DNA from: an uncultured Coriobacteriaceae bacterium
GTDB taxonomy: Bacteria; Actinomycetota; Coriobacteriia; Coriobacteriales; Atopobiaceae
Assembly (NCBI GenBank): GCA_902777325.1
Contig: CACYTH010000009.1
Span: 24,819-88,818 of the forward strand
DNA length: 64,000 bases
Reading direction: 5' to 3'
Part shown: piece after piece, positions 738 through 47,024 of the stretch
Numbering within the stretch: position 1 is the stretch's first letter
Layout: each line of letters opens with the position of its first letter
Notes under the pieces: generated by a model
What the model was told of the DNA's origin: nothing
What the model saw: the letters and a program-made list of their open reading frames with translations, nothing else
The model's database searches: none
Program-made: the position numbers and the translations under genes

Positions 738-1349
738 CTATTTATCCCGGAGCTCGCTAAATGCCGAGTGATGCTTGTCCTTCTCGCTCAAGATGACCTG
801 CTCGCCAGGGATAAGAGGCCACTTGATCCCGATTTCCGGGTCATCCCAGCGGATGCCGCCTTCGTCATTGGGGTGGTACACGTCGTCGCACTTGTAGGCA
901 AAGACGGCGGTGTCGCTGAGCACATAGAAGCCGTGGGCAAACCCACGCGGAATAAAGAACTGCCGGTTGCTCTCGGCGGACAGGGTCACACCAGTCCAAG
1001 AACCATAGGTGGGACTGCCCTCCCTCAGGTCGACGGCAACGTCGAAGACCTCTCCCTGAATGACACGCACCAGCTTTGCTTGGGGGTGATTGATCTGGAA
1101 GTGCAGCCCACGCAGGACCCCTCGCACCGATGAAGACTGGTTGTCCTGGACAAACTCGACATCAATGCCACCGGCAACGAAATCCGGACACTTGTAGGTC
1201 TCCATGAAGTACCCGCGGGAATCGCCATAAGCGCGGCACTCCACGACTATGACCCCATCTATCTCGGTGGGGATAAACGTGAAATTGCCTGACGTTATGG
1301 GTTCCATTTGTCTCTCCGGGCTAATCGTGGGTGATGCGACAACATCCAT
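738..1349 (-). CDS. rfbC: dTDP-4-dehydrorhamnose 3,5-epimerase
   Basis: 203-aa ORF with RmlC cupin motifs: DSRGYFMETY, RGLHFQ, KLVRVIQGEVFDVAVDLR, FIPRGFAHGF. Confidence 0.9.
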   Translation of the reverse strand: MDVVASPTISPERQMEPITSGNFTFIPTEIDGVIVVECRAYGDSRGYFMETYKCPDFVAGGIDVEFVQDNQSSSVRGVLRGLHFQINHPQAKLVRVIQGEVFDVAVDLREGSPTYGSWTGVTLSAESNRQFFIPRGFAHGFYVLSDTAVFAYKCDDVYHPNDEGGIRWDDPEIGIKWPLIPGEQVILSEKDKHHSAFSELRDK

Positions 1350-1376
1350 AGTAGCAAGAATGCGACAGCGACACCT

Positions 1377-1479
1377 GCGGGCCTGTCGCGACCTCCCGGT
1401 TCGAGCCCATGGGAGCCCGCCGAAAAAAAAGCGCCCCTTGCCAGGGACGCCGGAGTTTATGGTGGAGATGAAGGGGCTC
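1377..1479 (-). repeat. distal copy of a ~103-bp direct repeat: tRNA-Ala 3' fragment (1460-1479), trailer/terminator copy (1418-1459), first 41 nt of the hairpin element (1377-1417)
   Basis: 1377-1479 matches 1536-1640 almost exactly. The only difference is the A-run: [16 protein letters not shown] gaaaaagaaaag. The copy ends exactly at the T-loop position of tRNA-Ala (...gaaggggctc). Confidence 0.85.
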
Positions 1480-1576
1480 CCGCGCCGCCTACGGCGGCGC
1501 TCGTGGGGTTCGCTGCGCTCACCCCGCGACAGGCCGCGGGCCTGTCGCGACCTCCCGGTTCGAGCCCATGGGAGCC
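1480..1576 (-). repeat. tRNA-linked hairpin-rich element, Ala-locus copy (97 nt)
   Basis: Read in tRNA orientation: ggctcccatgggctcgaaccgggagg-tc-GCGACAGGCCcgcGGCCTGTCGC-GGGGtgagcgcagcgaaCCCC-acga-GCGCCGCCgtaGGCGGCGC-gg. It is homologous to 33094-33191 and shares a 38-nt identical block (gtcgcggggtgagcgcagcgaaccccacgagcgccgcc). It is more distantly related to 46802-46889. Confidence 0.8.
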
Positions 1577-1620
1577 CGCCGAAAAAGAAAAGCGCCCCTT
1601 GCCAGGGACGCCGGAGTTTA

Positions 1621-1696
1621 TGGTGGAGATGAAGGGGCTCGAACCCTCGGCCTCAGGCTTGCAAAGCCCGCGCTCTCCCAGCTGAGCTACATCCCC
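1621..1696 (-). tRNA. tRNA-Ala (anticodon TGC)
   Basis: The reverse complement folds as a cloverleaf. It has the GGGGATG/CATCTCC acceptor with the G3:U70 Ala identity pair, anticodon loop TTTGCAA, T-loop GGTTCGAGCCCC and an encoded CCA. Confidence 0.95.
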
Positions 1697-1776: not shown

Positions 1777-1853
1777 TGGTGGGCCTGACAAGGTTCGAAC
1801 TTGTGACCTCCCGGTTATCAGCCGGACGCTCTGACCAACTGAGCTACAGGCCC
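1777..1853 (-). tRNA. tRNA-Ile (anticodon GAT)
   Basis: Reverse complement is gggcctgtagctcagttggtcagagc...ccggCTGATAAccgg...ggttcgaacc...caggcccacca. Cloverleaf with anticodon loop CTGATAA and encoded CCA. Confidence 0.95.
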
Positions 1854-2037
1854 AACGCGAGAACTAATAATACACAGACGACCCCATTAGGTCAAGAAGA
1901 ATTTTGAGAACTTCTTTCACCTCTTTTGGAGGGCTTTCTACAGACCAATGCCCTCCAAATCGGCTCCTCCCGTTGCGCTCCGATGGCGTTTTTCCTATCA
2001 TGCGCTCTTGTCTTACGAGGAGGTCGCATTGGTACGC

Positions 2038-2616: not shown

Positions 2617-5412
2617 CTACTCGTCGATCAGGGTCTCGTCGAGTACCTCCTCACCTCCGATGTCGATGGGGTCGTCCTCGGAGGGAACGCCCAGCTCGAG
2701 GGCACCCTGCATCGGGTTGACGCGGGCGGCCTTCTTCTTGTGGACCACCATGCGCGCAACGGCACCGACGTGATCGGTCTCGCCGAGGTTCATGACCTTG
2801 ACACCCTGGGTCGAGCGTCCCAGCTTGGAGATGTCAGAGGACTTGACGCGAATGACCACGCCCTCCTCGGAAACGATCATCAGCTCGTGCTGTGGGCCAA
2901 CCACGCGGCACGCGACAAGGTTGCCCTTGCGCTGCGTCATCGCGATGGTGTACACGCCCTGGCCGCCGCGCTTGTGCTCGGGGTACTCGGAGACGGGCGT
3001 ACGCTTGCCGTAGCCCTTCTCGGTAATAACAAACAGGTCACCATTGCCGTTGGAGATCTCCATGCCAAGCATGGTCGCGCCATCCTTGAGGGTGATGCCG
3101 CGCACGCCGGAGGTTGCCCTGCCGGTGGGCCTGATCTCGGACTCGTCGAAGAGGATGGCCTTGCCGTGGCTGGAGCAGAGAATGACCTTCTCGTTCTTCT
3201 TGACGCGGCGCACGTTGACCAGCTCGTCACCCTTCTTGAGGTTGATGGCGATGAGGCCGTCGCGACGGGTCTTGTCGTAGTCGCTCATGGCCGTCTTCTT
3301 GACCATGCCGCTCTTGGTGGCAAACAGCAGGTACTCGTCCTCGGGGAAGCTGCGGCAGGTGATGACGGCCGTGGGATGCTCGCCCTCGTCGAACTGCAGG
3401 ACGTTGACGAGCGCCGAGCCACGCGAGTAGCGCGTGCCGGTGGGCAGCTCATGCACCTTGACGCGATAGACCTTGCCCTTGTTGGTGAAGAAGAGCACGA
3501 AATCATGTGTGGAGGCAACAAAGAGGTCCTCGACGAAGTCGTTGTCCTTGAGCGAGAGGCCCTGGATACCCTTGCCGCCGCGCTTCTGGGAGCGATAGGT
3601 GACCACAGGCAGGCGCTTGACGTAGCCGGCATGCGTACAGGTGATGACCATGTCCTCCTCGGCAATGAGGTCCTCGACGTCGAGGTCCTCTGCTGCGACG
3701 CCCGTGATCTGCGTGCGACGCTTGTTGCCAAAGCGCTGGCCGATTGCACCAAGCTCGTCCTTGATGACGCCGAGGATCTTCTCGGGATGCTCGAGCAGGT
3801 CGCGATAGTAGGCAATCTGCTCGTGCAGGGCTGTGATCTGGCCCACGAGCTCGTCGCGCGCCAGGCCAGTCAGGCGCCTCAGGCGCATCTGCAGGATTGC
3901 CTCGCCCTGGATGTCGTCGATGCCAAAGCGCTCGTGCATGCGTGCCTTTGCCTCGGCGTCGTCACGACTCGAGCGGATGATGTGCACGACCTCATCGATG
4001 TTGTCGACAGCAATGAGAAGGCCTTCGAGGATGTGGACGCGCTTGAGTGCCTTGTCCAGGTCAAACTGCGTACGACGGGTGACTACGTCGACCTGGTGGT
4101 CGATGTAGTGGCGCAGCATCTCGGGCAGGCTGAGCGTGCGGGGTACGCCGTCGACAAGCGCAAGGTCGATGACGCCAAAGTTGGCCTGGAGCTGCGTGCG
4201 CTTGTACAGGTTGTTGAGCACCACCTGCGGCACGGCGCCACTCTTGAGGTCGATGACGATGCGCATGCCCTTGCGGTTGGACTCGTCGCGCATGTCGGAG
4301 ATGCCCTCGATGTGCTTCTCGTTGACCTGCTGGGCGATACGCTCCTGCAGCGTGCCCTTGTTGACCTGATAGGGAATCTCGGTCACCACGAGGCGCTGGC
4401 GGCTGCCCTTGCCGATGTTCTCGACATGGACCTTTGCGCGCACGGTGATGGTGCCACGACCGGTCTCGTAAGCCTCGCGGATGCCGTCGGTGCCCATGAT
4501 GATGCCACCAGTGGGGAAGTCCGGGCCAGGCAGGACCTTCATGAGGTCGTCCACCGTGGCGTCGGGGTTGTCGATCATCATGTTGACGGCCGCGATAACC
4601 TCGTTCAGGTTGTGGGGCGGGATGTTGGTGGCCATGCCAACCGCGATACCCGACGAGCCGTTGACCAGGAGGTTGGGGAAGCGTGCAGGCAGCACGGCGG
4701 GTTCGGAGAGAGACTCGTCGTAGTTGGGCTGCAGGTCGACCGTCTCCTTGTCGAGGTCACGGAGCATCTCCATGGCGGCATAGGTCAGGCGGCTCTCCGT
4801 GTAACGCATGGCCGCCGGGGGATCGCCATCGATGGAGCCGAAGTTACCGTGGCCGTCGACGAGCGGCAGGCGCATGGAGAAGTCCTGGGCCATACGGACC
4901 ATGGAGTCGTAGATTGCGGCATCTCCGTGCGGATGGTACTTGCCCATGACTTCGCCGACCGTCCACGCACTCTTCTTGTGCGGGCGGCTCGGAACGATGT
5001 GGGCCTCGTTCATGGCATAGAGGATGCGCCTGTGCACGGGCTTGAGGCCGTCGCGCACGTCAGGCAGGGCTCGGGCGACGATGACCGACATCGAGTACTC
5101 GAGGAAGGAGGTCTTCATCTCCTGGCTCATCTCGATGGGCTTGAGCGCGCCGCCGTGGATGTCGGTAAGGTCGAGACGGGTGCCCGCCTCGTCCGAGATG
5201 GTGTGGGAGAGGGAGGCGCCGGCGAGGTTGCGCTCGGGGACTACCGGGTCTCCGTACTCGTCGTACTCGACCTCCTCGTCCTCGTCTGAGTCCTCGGCGT
5301 CATCGCCGTCGAAGATCTCGTCGATCTCGTCGGAGGCGTCGTCCTCTATCTCCTGGTCGAGGTCGTCGCGCTCGGCGTCGTCGTCAAACAGGTCGTTATC
5401 GTTATCAGCCAT
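2617..5412 (-). CDS. gyrA: DNA gyrase subunit A, with ~95-aa acidic N-terminal extension
   Basis: 931 aa. Motifs: [23 protein letters not shown], the GyrA box region and C-terminal beta-pinwheel repeats. A GAAGGA RBS precedes ATG 5412, 41 nt after the gyrB stop. Confidence 0.95.
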
Positions 5413-14337: not shown

Positions 14338-15096
14338 ATGTGGGATTGGTTTATATCGTTTCTGACTTGGGTGCTTGCCACACTGCAGAGCTTTGTCGGT
14401 GACTGGGGCCTTGCGGTCATCATTCTTACCTTTATCATTCGACTGCTCATCATGCCCCTGATGACCAAGTCCACCGCTTCGACTGCGCGCATGCAGGTGC
14501 TGCAGCCAAAGCTGCAGGAGATCCAGGAGCGCTACGCCGACGACCCCGAGCGTCAGATGGCTGAGATGCGCAAGTTCCAGGCGGAGAACAACTTCAACCC
14601 GCTTGGCGGCTGCCTGCCCATGTTCATCCAGATGCCGGTCTTCTTCGCGCTCTTTACCGTCGCACGCAACGTGCCCGAAGGCGCGAGCTTCTTTAACATC
14701 ATGCCGTCGATCTCCATGTCGGTTAGCGAGGCAGTCTCCGGGCTTGGTTTTCCCGGTGCACTGCCGTACGTCATCTTTGACGTGGGCTTTGGTGTGATGA
14801 CGCTCGCCCAGATGCTTGTCAACGTCAAGAGCGTCCCCGAGGACCAGCGCCAGCAGAACATCATGATGGGTGTCATGATGGGCGTCATGATGGTCTGGTT
14901 TGGTTGGTCTGTGCCGGCCGCCGTGCTGCTCTATTACGTCACGTCCGCAATCTGGCAGGTCGTGCAGCAGCAGCTGGTCACCAAGCGCGTGACCGAGCAG
15001 GTCAAGGCCGAGACCGAGGCCAGGCTGAAGGACCAGCCCAAGGAGATCAACGTGACGCGCCGCGAGCGTAAGCCGCGTCCGAAGAAGAAGAGTTAA
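14338..15096 (+). CDS. yidC: membrane protein insertase YidC (short Gram-positive type)
   Basis: Motifs GLAVIILTFIIRLLIMPL, LQPKLQEIQERY, NPLGGCLPMFIQMPVFFAL, and a basic C-terminal tail. Confidence 0.9.
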   Translation: MWDWFISFLTWVLATLQSFVGDWGLAVIILTFIIRLLIMPLMTKSTASTARMQVLQPKLQEIQERYADDPERQMAEMRKFQAENNFNPLGGCLPMFIQMPVFFALFTVARNVPEGASFFNIMPSISMSVSEAVSGLGFPGALPYVIFDVGFGVMTLAQMLVNVKSVPEDQRQQNIMMGVMMGVMMVWFGWSVPAAVLLYYVTSAIWQVVQQQLVTKRVTEQVKAETEARLKDQPKEINVTRRERKPRPKKKS

Positions 15097-25990: not shown

Positions 25991-26216
25991 GGGCCCTCCA
26001 TGGTACGCATGTTCCGTTTCTGTAAAGAATAGTACGGAATGACGGGCAAGCCAAACTCGGACAGCTCGGATGCCGCTTGCCCGCATCACGAGTCGGAGGA
26101 TGAAAACACACCTGAAAAGGATTGTCGTGTGGTGCTTGGTCTAATAGGGCCGTTGTCGGCGTATACTTAGAGCACTAATGTGCAATCACACGCAACCGCT
26201 AGGCGAGGGACGCAAC

Positions 26217-29200
26217 ATGGCGACTACGCGCGACTATACGGACTATCTCAACGACCAGGTAGACATTGCCCCGGTCAACAGCCAAGAGGAGCTGCAGGCT
26301 GCCGAGCTTATCGAGAGCCTGTTCGTCCAACATGGCCTCGAGACGCAGGTGCAGGAGTTCGACTCGCCGTCACTGGCGGGCCTGAGCTCGCGCATCTACT
26401 TGATTCTGCTGTTCATCGGTGTCCTGCTTGCAGGCTTTACCGGCACGCCTGTGTCCATCGTGGGCACCGTGATGGTCGTGGTTGCATTTGTGCTTCTTGC
26501 GCTTGCGCATAACGGCAACGACGTGCTGGCCGCCATCGGTCCGCAGGCGCGCAGCCAGAACGTCATTGGCGTTCACCGCGCCGAGGGCCCCAACGTGATC
26601 AAGGGCGCTCGCCCCATCGTGATCGTGGCGCACTACGACACGCCGCGTGAGAACTTCCTCAACGGGCGCGAGCTGGCCAAGTGGCAGCCGCTCATCAAGC
26701 GCCTGAGCTGGCCGTTCTCCATTGCGGTTCTCGTCCTCACGCTGCTGCAGCTGATTCCGTTCATCCCGGTGGTCGTCCGCCATGCGTTCTGGGTGCTGGG
26801 CGTACTGATTGCCCTTCCGCTCCTGCTTCTGGGAGCCTCCTCTATATACGAGCGCTTTGCGGCGTGCACGACGGGCGCTAACGACAACAAGGCGTCTGTT
26901 GCCGCCATGCTTGGCGTGCTTGACATGGTTCGCCCCGGTCCGGACGATGCGAAGGCGTGGGCCGCAAGCCATCCCAAGGGCGTGCGCCGCGAGCTCAAGG
27001 TCGACGAGGACGAACAAGATATATATGAGGAGTACGCCGACGAGGACTTCGAGGACGATGACTCTGACTACGAGGACGACTTCGTACGGTCGGCGGGTGC
27101 CGTTGTGGCGACCGAAGGCGACGACGAGGATCTTGCTCCCGAGGATGAGTTTGAGCCTGCGGATGAGGACCTCGCGCCTACGGACGGGTACGAGGACGAC
27201 TCCGTTTCCGAGTATGACGACTCGGACGATGAGTACGCGTTTGCCGACGAGGCCACAGATGAGCTGACGGACGAGTATGGCCTGCGCTCCCCGTCCACCG
27301 TGCGCCGTGGCGCCGACCTTCTCGCAAGCATGCAGGTGCTGCCCGAGGACTGCGAGATCGTGTACGAGGATCTCATTCCGCGCGAGGAGGCCATCGCGCG
27401 CATCGAGGAGGCCAATGCCGCCGCGGCAGGACCCTCAGGTCTCGAGCGCCTGCGTGAGACTGCCGGTGGGATTGGCGAGAATGTAAGTGGCGGCCTGGTC
27501 GTGGCTCGCGAGTTCTTTGTAAAGGTGTTCGAGGCGATCCGCGACTTCTTTGCCTCTTTGGGCGCCCGCTTTGCGCGCGAGAGGGAGGTCCCCGAGATCG
27601 AGCGCGGCGAGTCTGAGATTCCTACCGTCAGGCGCGCGACGACGGCGGACGAGGGCGAGGATGTCGCTGAGTACGCGGATGACGAGTACTACGACGACGA
27701 AGACTATGCCGACGACGAGTACCTCGACGAGGGACAGTACGACGAAGTCGACAATCAGTCGGTGGTGTCCGACGACGCTGAGGAGACGACGGATTTTTTA
27801 GCCGATCAGCCGGTGACTCAGGTGGAAGCGTTCTCACCGGCGACGAGCTTCAAGACCGTTGATTCTTACGATGAGGTCGGAGCGGCTTACGAGAGCGCTC
27901 CGGTTGCCAGCTTTGACGTGGAAGTGGGTGACGGCTTTGTCGCTCCTGAGCTAGTCGTGCCCGCTGTTGAGACGGTTGAGGATGTGGCAGCTCCCGTCGC
28001 GGAGACTCCTGTTGCGTCTGAGGAGTCTGTTATTGATGAGGCTATCGAGCAAGAGCCTCCAGTGGTGCAGCCTCTCCAGGATGCGGTTGCTGATGACCAG
28101 GAGCCCGTCTCGCTCTGGACGCCTCCTGCAGAGGACGAGTTCAGTGACGAGGACCTCATCGAGGCGGAGCAGCCTACGAGTGAGATTCCACTCGACGCGG
28201 TGCTTGCCGGTGTGGCCGATGCGGCTGCTGAGGAAGCTGTCGAGGAAGAGGTGGAGCCTGAGGCAGTATTCGAGCCCGAACCGGAACCCGTTACAGAGAT
28301 TGAGCCTGAGCTTGCCGAGGAGTTCGAGGCAATAACTGAGCCGGAGCCGGAGCCGGAGGTCGAGCCCGAACCGGAGCCGGAGCCCGAAATCGAATCCGAG
28401 CAAGAACCGATTGTGGAATCGGTAGTCGAGCCTGAGTATGAGGCTGAGCTCGTGGCCGAGTCTGAGTCGGCAGTGGAGCCCGAACCGATTGAAGCCTTCG
28501 AGGAGAACTTTGTCGATGAGCTCTCGGCAGAGTCGGTGGAAGACGAGTCACTTGATGAGTCAGTATTCGAGGCAGAGGCTGACGAGGAAGCGTTTGTCGA
28601 AGAGACTGCGGTAGACGAAGAAGAGTACGACGGGGAAGAAGGTTTCTTCAAGAGCCTGAGGAATCCCTTTGCTGACATACTTGATGCCGAGTACGAGGTC
28701 ATCGAGGAGCAGACAGAGGATGCGACGTTTGCGGCCGGCGTGCCCGTTGAGGTGGTCGACGTCCCTTCCCTTGGGGTCAATGACGATGCGCTCAAGGCGT
28801 TTGCGCCCGATTCCGCGAGCGAGCCGATGTGGAACACGTTCGCAGAGCCTGACATTGCCGAGACAGTCGAAGAGCCAGAGGTTGTCGAGCTTGCAGAAGA
28901 GCCGGCTGCTGACAGCAGCATTGACGAGGTTGATGAAACCGAGACCGATTCTCTTGCAGAGCCCGTGCCAGCTTTGGTCGAGGATGAGCCAGTCATGATG
29001 GAAGAGCCTGACGACGAAGAGGATACCGTCGTGGCGGAAGAGCCTTCCTACGACGAGATCATCGAGCCGGTCGAGCAGCCCGAAGAGGACTACGACGCAG
29101 AGTTTGCAGCAGAGGAGACGGCATCCTTCAAGGCGCTGAGCGAGGAAGATGTCGAGACCGCGCGGTTGGAGGCCGAGCAGAGAGCTGCCGAAGCGGCATC

Positions 29201-31340
29201 GGTGCTTCATCAGATGTTTGCCACTGCTCCGGAGCAGGAGCGTGTCGTGGTGAAGCCCGCAACCGACGTGCTGCATCAGATGTTTGCCACGCTTCCCGAG
29301 ATAGAGCCGCTGCCGATTCCTGAGCCCGAGCCGGAGCCGGAACCGGAGCCGGTGGTTGAGGCCGAGCCCGAGCCGGAACCCGAGGTTGTATCGGAACCCG
29401 AGCCTGAGGTCGAGCCGGAACCCGAGCAAGAGCCGGAGCCGGTTGTGGAGCCTGAACCCGAAGTGGAGCCCGAACCGGAGCAGGAACCCGAGCCTGAGTC
29501 CGAGGTTGTACCCGAGCCAGAGCTCGAACCAGTAGTGGAGCCTGAGCCGGAGCCCGAACCCGAGCCCGAGCCGGAACCCGAGCCGAAGCCGGAGCCGATT
29601 GCGGAGCCGGAGCCGGTGGCCAAGCCCGAGTCGGTGATTGCGGCCGAACCCGAGCCTGAGATCGAACCCGAATCGGAGCCCGAACCCGAGATTGAGCCCG
29701 AAGTGGAACTCGAGCCGGAACCCGAACCCGAGATTGAAACCGAACTGGAGCCGGAACCCGAGCCTGAGTCCGAGGTTGTACCCGAGCTAGAGCCCGAACC
29801 AGTAGTGGAGCCTGAGCCGGAGCCAGTGACCGAGCCGGAACCCGAGCCCGAGCCGGAGCCGGAACCCGAGCCGGAGCCGGAACCCGAGCCCGAGCCCGAG
29901 CCGGAGCCGGAGCCGGAACCCGAGCTAGAGCCGGAGCCGGAACCCGAGCCGGAGCCGGAACCCGAGCCCGAGCCGGAGCCGGAGCCGGAACCCGAGCCGG
30001 AACCCGAGCCGGAGCAGACCAAGCTCATGGAGGGAATCGTATTCTCCACCGAAACTGATGTCAGCGAAGACGAGCTTGCGGACAAGGATGTCACCGGTCT
30101 GACCGCCATCCCTGTCGAGGCCCAGGCGGACGCCGAGGATGCGCTGCCTCCTGTGCAGGAGCGCATTCCCAAGCCGCGTGCCGTCGATGACCCTGATTGG
30201 GGAAAGAGCAACTTCAAGCCGTCGGTCATGTCGGCCGGTCGCCGTGCCATGTTGCTCGACCTTCCCGACCCTGCCGTCATAGCTGTCGACCCGCTGGCGC
30301 CGACGCGCGAGGATGGGACGATGCCAGCGACGGTGGATCAGAGCACTGCAAGTCGATTTGAGATCTTGCGCAGGGTCCCCTCGCCGCTTGACGATCCGTC
30401 AGAGGAGGTAAAGGCGGCGGGTACCGGTGGATCGACTCCGCGCAGGCCTGCTCCTCAGGAGAAGGAGCCCGAGGAACAGCTCCCCAGGTACAACAAGACT
30501 AATATCGGCAGCCGCGCTCCCAAGAAGAACTCCAAGCGCAAGATGCATTTTGGTCGCAAGAAGAAGGCTGAGAGCGATCAGGTGGAGTCGATGGGCGAGT
30601 GGCTTGGCCTGAGCGATGACTACGATGCCAAGAAGGACGGACGTCAGATTGGCAGCTGGGATAACTTTGACGACAGCGACGGCAAGTGGAAGGGCGGTGC
30701 AACCTTGCGAGCTGGTCTGCGCGACTACGACGAGTACGACTCCGATCAGGTGACGACTGCTTTGCCTAACTTTGACTCCCTCGACCTTATGCCGGGTGAG
30801 GAGCAGACAATGCAAGAGCAGCAGGTCGACGAGCAGGATGTCGAGACTTACGAGAACGAGATAGGCGACGACGTGCTGCATCTCGGCGACGACGACATCA
30901 TTGCGCACGACATCTGGTTTGTCGGCGTAGGCGCCTCTGCGCGCGACCATGCTGGCGTCAAGGCGTTCCTCGACGAGCATCGCAGGGACATCCGCGGTGC
31001 CTTCCTGATCAACCTTGATAGCGTTGGCGCGGGCAACCTGACCCTGCTCACCGGCGAGGGCACTGGCGCAAAGCGCCGCTCCGACCGCCGCTTGGGCCGC
31101 ATGCTCACCAACATTGCCGACGCCCTGCATATCGATCTTGGTCGCGCCGACTATAGCTGGGACGAGACGGACGCAACGCCGGCGATGCAGCGCTCGGTGC
31201 GCGTAAGCACGCTCATGGGCATGTCCAACGACGGGGTTGCCGCGCATTCCCACACGGCGGACGATGAGCCGGAGTACCTCAACGACAAGCAGATCGCCAA
31301 CGTTGCGGACATCATTGCGGAGCTGATCAGGCGCTCGTAG
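26217..31340 (+). CDS. giant membrane protein with split M28-peptidase-like motifs and ~1300-aa acidic low-complexity insert
   Basis: 1707 aa from ATG 26217. N-terminal motifs NVIGVH...[10 protein letters not shown] and [13 protein letters not shown] are separated by hydrophobic helices. C-terminal motifs [24 protein letters not shown] and [12 protein letters not shown]. The D/E/P/A/V-rich middle includes long (EP)n runs. Confidence 0.8.
29318..30015 (+). repeat. coding hexanucleotide tandem repeat (GAGCCN)n encoding (EP)n
   Basis: ~700 bp of gagcccgagccggagccggaacccgag... in frame with the giant ORF. A higher-order ~270-bp duplication is present: 29489-29553 nearly equals 29759-29823. A shorter run lies at ~28255-28400. 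Confidence 0.9.
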
Positions 31341-32972: not shown

Positions 32973-33048
32973 GGGCCGTTAGCTCAGCTGGCAGAGCAGG
33001 GGACTTTTAATCCCAAGGTCTAGGGTTCGAAACCCTAACGGCCCACCA
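32973..33048 (+). tRNA. tRNA-Lys (anticodon TTT)
   Basis: Acceptor gggccgt/acggccc, anticodon loop CTTTTAA, T-arm tagggTTCGAAAcccta, encoded CCA. Confidence 0.95.
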
Positions 33049-33257
33049 AGAGAGATCGGCGCCCCGGCGACGGGGCGCTTTCCGTTGCCGTGGGACTCCC
33101 GCGGTTTCGAACCCGCGAGGGCGCGACATGCCGGTGGCATGTCGCGGGGTGAGCGCAGCGAACCCCACGAGCGCCGCCCCGGGCGGCGCGGCGAAACCCT
33201 AACGGCCCACCAAGAGAGATCGGCGCCCCGGCGACGGGGCGCTTTCCGTTGCCGTGG
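33028..33257 (+). repeat. perfect 66-bp direct repeat (33028-33093 and 33192-33257) bracketing the hairpin element
   Basis: cgaaaccctaacggcccaccaagagagatcggcgccccggcgacggggcgctttccgttgccgtgg occurs twice with no mismatch. Copy 1 is the genuine tRNA-Lys 3' part plus its terminator hairpin. Confidence 0.95.
33094..33191 (+). repeat. tRNA-linked hairpin-rich element, Lys-locus copy (98 nt)
   Basis: gactcc-CGCGGtttcgaacCCGCG-aggGCGCGACATGCCggtGGCATGTCGC-GGGGtgagcgcagcgaaCCCC-acga-GCGCCGCCccgGGCGGCGC-gg. That is four consecutive hairpins. Homologous to 1480-1576 and 46802-46889. Confidence 0.8.
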
Positions 33258-36214: not shown

Positions 36215-36490
36215 ATGGCTAGACAGCAGAGGCAAGTTGAACAGCGCCAGCCGCGTCGCAAGTACTGCCAGTTCTGCAAGGAGAACGTCGAGTTCATCGA
36301 CTACAAGGACACGCAGCTCCTTCGCAAGTACATGACCGACCGTGGCAAGATCAAGCCCCGCCGCGTCACTGGCGCTTGCACGCAGCATCAGCATGACATC
36401 GCGCTCGCAATCAAGCGGGCTCGTGAGATGGCACTCGTCCCCTACACCGTCACCGTGGTTTCCAGCCGCGGCGGCCGCAGCCGCGGCTAA
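36215..36490 (+). CDS. rpsR: 30S ribosomal protein S18
   Basis: Motifs [36 protein letters not shown] and [20 protein letters not shown]. Confidence 0.93.
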
Positions 36491-46746: not shown

Positions 46747-46769
46747 CGGTCGGCAGATGGTGCCGACCG
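46747..46769 (-). terminator. hairpin closing the tRNA-Ser / element unit
   Basis: On the minus strand: CGGTCGGCA-ccatc-TGCCGACCG followed by TTT. It lies directly after the tRNA-Ser 3' fragment copy. Confidence 0.45.
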
Positions 46770-46782
46770 GTAAAGCTCTATA

Positions 46783-46801
46783 GGCGGAGGAGGAGGGATT
46801 C
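46783..46801 (-). pseudogene. 19-nt duplicate of the tRNA-Ser 3' end (T-loop GAATC through discriminator)
   Basis: ggcggaggaggagggattc at 46783-46801 is identical to 46938-46956 inside tRNA-Ser. Identity stops exactly in the T-loop. Confidence 0.85.
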
Positions 46802-46889
46802 CCGCGTTGCCTTGCGGCAACGCTCTCAGGCCTCGCTGCGCTCGGCCCGTAGCGCTTTCGCGCTACGACCTTGCGGTTCGATGACCACC
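46802..46889 (-). repeat. tRNA-linked hairpin-rich element, Ser-locus copy (88 nt, divergent)
   Basis: In tRNA orientation: ggtggtcatcgaaccgcaaggtc-GTAGCGCgaaaGCGCTAC-gGGCCgagcgcagcgagGCCt-gaGAGCGTTGCCgcaaGGCAACGC-gg. It has the same hairpin order and the same GAGCGCAGCGA loop as the Ala and Lys copies, with different stem sequences and GNRA loops. Confidence 0.7.
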
Positions 46890-46936: not shown

Positions 46937-47024
46937 TGGCGGAGGAGGAGGGATTCGAACCCTCGAGACCTTTCGGCCCGGCGGTTTTCAAGACCGCTGC
47001 ATTCAACCACTCTGCCACCCCTCC
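46937..47024 (-). tRNA. tRNA-Ser (anticodon TGA)
   Basis: Reverse complement is ggaggggtggcagagtggttgaatgcagcggtCTTGAAAaccgc-cgggccgaaaggtctc (long variable arm)-gagggTTCGAATccctc-ctcctccgcca. Confidence 0.93.

Follow-up and report, generated by a model that had tools for sequence, protein, structure and literature searches.

The tRNA-Ala locus of the 64,000-nt stretch of Atopobiaceae DNA that we analyzed as a whole (the window) probably carries an array of tRNA-linked repeats (TLRs), the counterpart in this family of the "178 bp x 3.14" / RtT elements at E. coli tyrT. Judged from the sequence, we view the array as a likely actinobacterial variant of this known class, with its suggested homology resting on short strings and layout and with convergence as a possible explanation of both. 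Each repeat unit comprises the 3'-terminal 18-21 nt of a tRNA (from T-loop position 56/57 through CCA), the terminator that belongs to this tRNA, and a non-coding module of ~100 nt with four hairpins that we call M, C, B, and A. At tRNA-Ala, these parts and their surroundings are the following:

1867-1895, minus strand: promoter-like site TTGACC-17-TATTAT, upstream of tRNA-Ile
1777-1853, minus strand: tRNA-Ile(GAT), first gene of the Ile-Ala pair (ARAGORN and Rfam)
1621-1696, minus strand: tRNA-Ala(TGC) (ARAGORN and Rfam)
1581-1620, minus strand: trailer 1, an intrinsic terminator with its hairpin at 1591-1612 (1612-1591 in tRNA sense) and the tail ttttcttttt
1480-1580, minus strand: full module of the Ala locus with four hairpins (M, C, B, A) and the 3' end CGCGG, 100.2 bits with the covariance model
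1552-1574, minus strand: hairpin M of the full module; the T-arm core of tRNA-Ala is found in it as a reverse complement, GGGCTCGAACC (1557-1567)
1526-1548, minus strand: hairpin C of the full module
1505-1525, minus strand: hairpin B of the full module, apex GCGCAGC
1482-1500, minus strand: hairpin A of the full module
1460-1479, minus strand: displaced copy of the tRNA-Ala 3' end, gagccccttcatctccacca, 20 nt
1420-1459, minus strand: trailer 2, the second terminator copy, with its hairpin at 1430-1451 (1451-1430 in tRNA sense) and the tail tttttttt
1368-1419, minus strand: truncated second module, 22.5 bits with the covariance model
738-1307, minus strand: rfbC, neighbor of the array

An initial annotation had described this order of tRNA, trailer, element, tRNA 3' copy, trailer, and partial element, and coordinates and alignment bear it out. 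The 20-nt tRNA 3' copy that it had pointed out is found both at 1460-1479 and inside the tRNA gene itself, of which the last 20 nt (1621-1640; T-loop G57 to CCA) form the first copy of the repeated 3' fragment, and the two trailers said to consist of a hairpin and a T-run each score as an intrinsic terminator. A repeat search returned direct repeats at 1377-1437/1536-1596 (spacing 159) and 1423-1479/1584-1640 (spacing 161). The period of about 159 bp is indeed nearly perfect: when 1536-1640 was aligned globally with 1377-1479, the sole difference was a 2-nt indel within the T-run, which reads ttttcttttt in the former copy and tttttttt in the latter. The array has no entry in the output of TRF because it holds fewer than 2 copies. 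An open reading frame on the plus strand (1249-1632) crosses the repeats and was dismissed as a protein-coding reading, being a by-product of the repeat.

The truncated second module retains hairpin M (1393-1415) and, of hairpin C, the left arm with its loop (1377-1389). The partial unit does not end there, since aggtgtcgc (1368-1376) continues it as the right arm of the long hairpin in degenerate form, which identifies the second module as a truncated older copy. This copy is kept in all 9 strains examined.

The Ile-Ala tRNA pair stands alone as previously stated, with no rRNA gene beside it or anywhere in the window, but this is not unusual since it adjoins gyrA and gyrB as in other Actinomycetota; a stand-alone pair near the origin is presumably kept across this phylum, in the position of ileT-alaT of M. 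tuberculosis. Besides rfbC, gyrA, and gyrB, the surroundings include a gene for a BFN-domain protein (1948-2526) whose best named relatives belong to Olsenella and other Atopobiaceae (57% identity); together with the rumen metagenomes that yielded the contigs, this points to an uncultured Atopobiaceae bacterium of the rumen. In relatives with 69-77% BFN identity, tRNA-Ala is followed by plain terminators and no module, and one of them has no tRNA-Ala at this position. The TTGACC-17-TATTAT site upstream of tRNA-Ile is the only promoter-like match in 1250-1950, which places the array in the same operon as the tRNA pair; no promoter was found inside the Ala module, and terminators flank this module on both sides. 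As a separate observation, the spacer between tRNA-Ile and tRNA-Ala contains, at 1720-1764, a 45-nt near-perfect palindrome, aataaccgccccagcg...cgctggggcggttatt, that recurs almost base for base in the relatives with 69-77% BFN identity, even where tRNA-Ala is missing (L286), and may be a processing or termination signal. In a single strain (L123), a gene for a 760-aa sulfatase lies between the BFN gene and tRNA-Ile, so the upstream side of the Ile-Ala pair is variable as well.

The module at tRNA-Ala belongs to a family of 11 units that we found behind tRNA-Ala, Lys, Ser(TGA), Ser(GCT), Glu, and Thr, all of them directly downstream of the tRNA and on its strand. With a covariance model built from 7 units, the 64-kb window contains 3 full copies and 1 partial copy, every one behind a tRNA. 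Apart from the Ala array, these are located as follows:

32973-33048, plus strand: tRNA-Lys(TTT), host of the sister unit
33094-33191, plus strand: Lys module with M at 33096-33121, C at 33123-33145, B at 33146-33166, and A at 33171-33189, 98.1 bits
46783-46936, minus strand: Ser unit, older and divergent, behind tRNA-Ser(TGA) (46937-47024), 82.2 bits
46903-46923, 46869-46886, 46849-46866, 46829-46847, and 46804-46823, minus strand: trailer hairpin, M, C, B, and A of the Ser unit
46783-46800, minus strand: 18-nt copy of the tRNA-Ser 3' end, followed by a different terminator at 46747-46770

The Lys module sits between perfect direct repeats of 66 nt (33028-33093 and 33192-33257), each composed of the tRNA 3' end and the trailer. 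Displaced tRNA 3' copies are 18-21 nt long (Ala, 20 nt at 1460-1479; Lys, 21 nt at 33192-33212; Ser, 18 nt at 46783-46800), they match the tRNA from T-loop position 56/57 onward in every case, and the tRNA itself is always intact. The 38-nt block said to be shared by the Ala and Lys copies occurs exactly twice in the window, at 1493-1530 on the minus and 33141-33178 on the plus strand, where shuffled sequences predict 0 occurrences, and the compensatory change between the long hairpins of these two copies is real in the form of a G-C versus a T-A pair.

Beyond the window, units were found behind tRNA-Ser(GCT) in a Coriobacteriaceae metagenome-assembled genome (L001), behind tRNA-Thr (L231), and behind the tRNA-Ala of a related, syntenic organism (L246). 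The most elaborate locus is a tRNA-Glu gene (L217) that is followed by 3 dissimilar modules in tandem, each with a different terminator, and by a fourth remnant further on, while the 19-nt copies of the tRNA-Glu end are almost identical to one another. Duplication alone cannot give such an array of dissimilar units with a terminator each. The pattern scans used in the search lacked specificity: What the genome scan picked up was for the most part MIRU-type tandem repeats of Mycobacterium (52-53 bp) and other GC-rich noise, with only L001 as a real unit, and 3 of the 120 loci from the metagenome scan were real. MIRU units have GAGCGCAGCGA in common with the family but none of its architecture, and we treated this match as chance. 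An uncultured Cryptobacterium (L083, 1699-1779) has an isolated hairpin GGGA-GAGCGCAGCGA-CTCCC followed by GAGCGCAGCC with no tRNA nearby (19 bits), which could represent a fragment of the family standing on its own, or chance. Between the displaced tRNA-Ala copy and rfbC of L246 (~4300-4560, minus strand), directly past the unit, several tandem repeats of ~50 nt (gaccagcagatgggcccggcayacctg...) constitute a repeat family different from the module. Past the tRNA-Glu array, L217 has a long and perfect hairpin at 999-1075 that is made of four copies of agtgcaaagtcgtg-type words and gives spurious Rfam microRNA matches.

The predicted hairpins of the module show strong covariation across the family. 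In the alignment of 11 units, 96.7% of cells are paired as compared to 33-42% with slid partners, and 14 of 27 pairs show double changes at values that none of 500 shuffles reach, though both counts lean towards structure because the alignment had been fitted to the model. Hairpin B has a conserved TGAG...CGAA frame enclosing a covarying inner stem, and its apex is a GCGNAGC-type triloop in the Ala, Lys, and both Ser units as well as in L143, the tRNA-Glu units E1 and E2, and L246; in Glu E3, L138, and the Thr unit, the apex is CCGCAGG, an AGC triloop, and a GTCA tetraloop, respectively. GCGNAGC is a motif of unusually stable DNA mini-hairpins (PMC13037366, PMC3201870). Since every copy of hairpin C is perfectly palindromic, with no wobble intermediates, and the GCGNAGC / cGNAg rule holds for the apices of both B and A, single-stranded DNA fits these structures at least as well as RNA does. 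DNA folds of the two strands are alike (z -2.5 to -4.3), and G-T wobbles number 9 on the tRNA-sense strand versus 3 on the other; it is only this count and the E. coli precedent that favor the tRNA-sense strand. A tRNA-like gene on the opposite strand was sought with ARAGORN and the Rfam tRNA model, which returned nothing, and acceptor-like pairings seen by eye were not conserved.

Hairpin M connects the module to its host gene by carrying the reverse complement of the core of the host tRNA's T-arm (GGTTCGAnnCC, 11-14 nt). The variable dinucleotide of M corresponds to T-loop positions 59-60 in 10 of the 11 units, with 6 kinds represented (GC, AA, AT, GA, CT, and TT). In L143, M fits a variant T-loop (GA) borne by the unit and not the canonical T-loop of tRNA-Lys, which makes the complementarity a property of the unit itself. 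When the module was folded together with the tRNA copy, the RNA minimum-free-energy structure had a closing helix between M and the start of this copy in 7 of 10 units, a closing helix was also present in the fold of the E. coli unit, and circular folds yielded equivalent pairing. A unit folded in this way consists of the closing helix, 3 or 4 hairpins, and a free acceptor/CCA tail.

These properties resemble those of a repeat class known from E. coli, where 22 TLRs are distributed over ten loci with 1-5 per locus, and the tRNA or 5S rRNA that precedes a repeat has the same 18-19 bp at its 3' end as the repeat itself (PMC8144298). The first case was a 178-bp unit repeated 3.14 times at tyrT (tyrT-tyrV; Egan and Landy 1978; Rudd 1999; reviewed in PMC8144298). 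At tyrT-tyrV of E. coli K-12, four units score 133-138 bits with the Rfam RtT model (RF00391), the consensus of which has a closing helix formed by the 5' segment GGGGAAGG with the copied CCTTCCCC around internal hairpins. The units described here share with TLR/RtT elements their place directly behind the tRNA on its strand (11 of 11 units), a 3' end identical to the last 18-21 nt of this tRNA, a 5' segment that pairs with the copied tRNA end as a closing helix around internal hairpins, and tandem arrangement (1.4 units for Ala; alleles with 0, 1, and at least 2 units for Lys; 3 units plus a remnant for L217) within the range of 1-5 units per locus. They also have strings in common with the K-12 units: 20 nt of GAGCGTTGCCGCAGGCAACG in L246, 19 nt of TGAGGAGCGAAGCGACGAA in unit E1 of L217, and 15 nt in the window's Ser unit, whereas the longest string expected by chance is 12-13 nt (300 dinucleotide shuffles); GAGCGC(C)AGCGA is a further shared motif. 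With our covariance model, the four E. coli units come out on top and in collinear order, if weakly (E 0.008-0.04). In the other direction, RF00391 gives no match to the units here at its gathering threshold (45 bits) nor at E<=10, and the proposed homology with E. coli TLRs therefore rests on short strings and layout. The differences concern the order and number of hairpins, the terminator that is duplicated along with the unit here, the pairing segment (the T-loop core GGTTCGAnnCC here, T-stem plus acceptor in RtT), and the host, which is from Actinomycetota here and from Enterobacterales in the E. coli family.

A parallel to a module between terminators are the three E. coli TLRs between the dual terminators of rrnA, rrnB, and rrnD, the exceptions with a known role, where the small RNAs rrA/rrB/rrF are made by read-through of terminator 1 (PMC8144298). 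Like these, the module described here has a terminator on either side and finishes with a copied 3' end of the stable RNA that precedes it, but rrA/rrB/rrF follow 5S rRNA, bind Hfq and CsrA via GGA motifs (PMC8144298), and have terminators T1 and T2 that are not copies of each other. MITEs and REP/BIME-type repeats are likewise small, non-coding, rich in hairpins, and present in multiple copies; in contrast to them, the units here have no short target-site duplication, the duplicated flank being 58-104 nt of tRNA end and terminator, and no free-standing copies independent of a tRNA exist in the 64-kb window.

Unit numbers differ between strains at both loci where they were compared. For tRNA-Ala, we collected 9 contigs of the same species by their exact RfbC protein from rumen metagenomes in ENA, JGI, and Logan assemblies. 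The long allele of the window is found in 4 of these contigs (L121, L125, L127, and L129), while the other 5 (L122, L123, L124, L126, and L128) have a short allele with exactly 159 bp less and the order tRNA, terminator, truncated module, and flank; the truncated module is thus found in long and short alleles alike. An assembly artefact, which would have undermined the repeat, was rejected because both alleles occur in contigs assembled at k=141, longer than the 103-nt repeat, and in all three assembly sources. The T-run of all five short alleles is of the proximal type, and the long allele is also found in a lineage with a diverged Ile-Ala spacer (L127), which makes a single deletion the likeliest history. 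On this sequence evidence, the difference between 1.4 and 0.4 units would be most readily explained by recombination between the 103-nt direct repeats. The earlier proposal that reiteration arose by repeated insertion, by unequal recombination, or by both is supported in general, but at Ala recombination between these repeats suffices. One contig (L128) has GGGGTCGAGC in place of GGGTTCGAGC in the tRNA-Ala T-loop (T54 to G), probably a sequencing error or a minority variant.

At tRNA-Lys, the variation is wider and includes the following alleles:

Precise empty site: L139, L280, L281, L283
One unit: the window, L137, L140, L141, L142, L145
At least two tandem units: L279
Longer module of a different kind, its own terminator duplicated: L138
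Variant 3' half of the tRNA, then another module type: L143
AT-rich insert: L144

Ala and Lys alleles assort independently between samples. The known TLR family shows the same polymorphism of unit number, since 5,426 complete E. coli genomes have 1, 2, 3, or 4 annotated RtT units behind tyrV (arrays spanning 345, 523, and 701 bp for 1, 2, and 3 units). We also observed that units coincide with breakpoints of short-read assemblies of this species (L133-L136, L145, L146, L279, and L282 start or stop inside Lys or Ser units). A 1720-aa open reading frame at 26178-31340 contains ~57 copies of a Glu-Pro repeat, GAGCCCGAGCCG (repeat region 29322-30015), and the protein measures 1681, 1684, 1694, 1696, or 1720 aa depending on the strain and 1820 aa with SpaA-type domains in L148. 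The gene for ribosomal protein S18, rpsR, is intact in the window (36215-36490) but has an internal 79-bp deletion relative to the window and L149 in L147/L276 (ERZ1040316 scaffold_480, 14656-14657), which reflects a strain in which the gene is broken or else a fault of assembly.

The strongest alternative to a TLR array, if a rather unlikely one, is a cargo-less miniature integrative element (attP-only and CIME-like) of which the ~160-bp unit is moved at the T-loop by a tyrosine integrase acting in trans, with arrays growing by accretion into the regenerated tRNA; this would be compatible with the TLR reading as its mechanism of spread. CIMEs and accretion at the 3' ends of tRNA and tmRNA genes (PMC5704250; Dehalococcoides ssrA islands, PMC3146451) have in common with our units the direct repeats of the RNA gene's 3' end on both flanks, the tandem and heterogeneous arrays, the regenerated RNA gene, and the presence/absence polymorphism. 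In line with integration, identity to the tRNA always begins at T-loop position 56/57 and a functional tRNA is restored, displaced tRNA copies decay, and the tRNA-Glu array has 3 dissimilar units with terminators but almost identical 19-nt copies. The tRNA-Lys gene is moreover a hotspot with multiple occupants, including one AT-rich insert and one variant 3' half with T-loop crossovers upstream of resident units, and a single T-arm-like site is present in opposite orientations at the module end adjoining the tRNA copy (GCGG-GAnnCC) and in hairpin M (GGnnTC-GAA-CCGC). But the units here measure only ~160 bp, have no genes, and display conserved, covarying hairpins, and neither a cognate integrase nor an autonomous relative was found: There is no integrase or other recombinase near any unit, no integrase among the annotated genes of the window at 24-50 kb, and a limited search of IMG/VR, phages, and plasmids gave 0 matches. 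As a candidate parent element, we considered the DNA past the partial module in L143/L151 and rejected it, given that it has no open reading frame and no match in phages or IMG/VR. Module subtypes also cross-cut tRNA identity, a preformed attP does not explain why the Ala and Lys modules, which share the identical 38-nt block, each have the native terminator of their own locus, and E. coli TLRs are found behind 5S rRNA, too, which has no T-loop (PMC8144298).

Quite improbable, in our view, is a self-retargeting mobile element with a single-stranded DNA or RNA intermediate in which M serves as a guide that anneals to the target's T-arm, while the segment from T-loop to terminator is copied from the target's primary transcript or at a staggered break. 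The direct repeats of recent copies begin in the T-loop and extend 8-15 nt beyond the terminator hairpin, approximately the 3' part of a primary transcript, and are identical to the resident trailer; M of L143 matches the variant T-loop that the element itself brings along, mini-hairpin motifs known from single-strand priming sites are present, and only 2 changed bases in M would be needed for a new target. Against this, the units have no linked enzyme of the reverse transcriptase, HUH, or IS110 type, the lengths of the direct repeats vary (58-66 nt), and the dissimilar terminators beside conserved tRNA copies at tRNA-Glu argue against a target-site duplication that diverged in place. Highly improbable are inert scars, i.e., att-site leftovers of larger islands plus ordinary tandem duplication without function or mobility. 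Strain-specific DNA does join tRNA 3' ends in relatives and at the Lys locus, and deletion between direct repeats alone accounts for the Ala alleles, but the uniform module size and four-hairpin order over six tRNA identities and several genera, the compensatory changes in 14 pairs, the fit of M to the tRNA in 10 of 11 units, and the motifs shared with E. coli TLRs are not expected of random deletion remnants.

With a TLR array as our preferred reading, the parts of the unit may act together as follows. M would pair with the copy of the tRNA end that closes the unit, and the strand would fold so that this closing helix is accompanied by three hairpins and the acceptor/CCA tail stays free, a design shared with the Rfam RtT family. 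By analogy with the E. coli rrn TLRs, some transcription may read through terminator 1 and give low-level expression of the module, though at Ala this read-through may be very low because the terminator is strong (9-bp stem and T-run). Since the module ends like a tRNA, the read-through RNA could, again by analogy, be trimmed by the tRNA 3'-end machinery. New tRNA genes would be reached by insertion at the T-loop/3' end in a manner that leaves an intact tRNA. That insertions also occur at the level of the family is suggested by different subtypes on the same tRNA, the same subtypes on different tRNAs, and the array of dissimilar units at tRNA-Glu.

More broadly, we offer as a speculation, and as an unlikely one, that TLRs are one ancient class reaching across phyla from Enterobacterales to Coriobacteriia that parasitises or serves the 3' ends of stable RNAs by copying the 3' end together with the terminator. 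Their built-in complement of the T-arm would then both close the fold and specify the tRNA, two base changes would suffice for retargeting, and the intermediate would be single-stranded. The dual terminators of some rRNA and tRNA operons may be a by-product of unit insertion. For genome annotation, the arrays matter because they break short-read assemblies and because a prophage att scar is the wrong default label for them. TLRs have been known in E. coli since 1978 without an accepted origin or function, and this family from a distant phylum provides new handles in the form of natural alleles that range from 0 and 1 to 2 or more units, module subtypes that differ behind one and the same tRNA, and a T-loop complement that tracks the host tRNA, which together make the origin of TLRs testable by comparative genomics and simple genetics.
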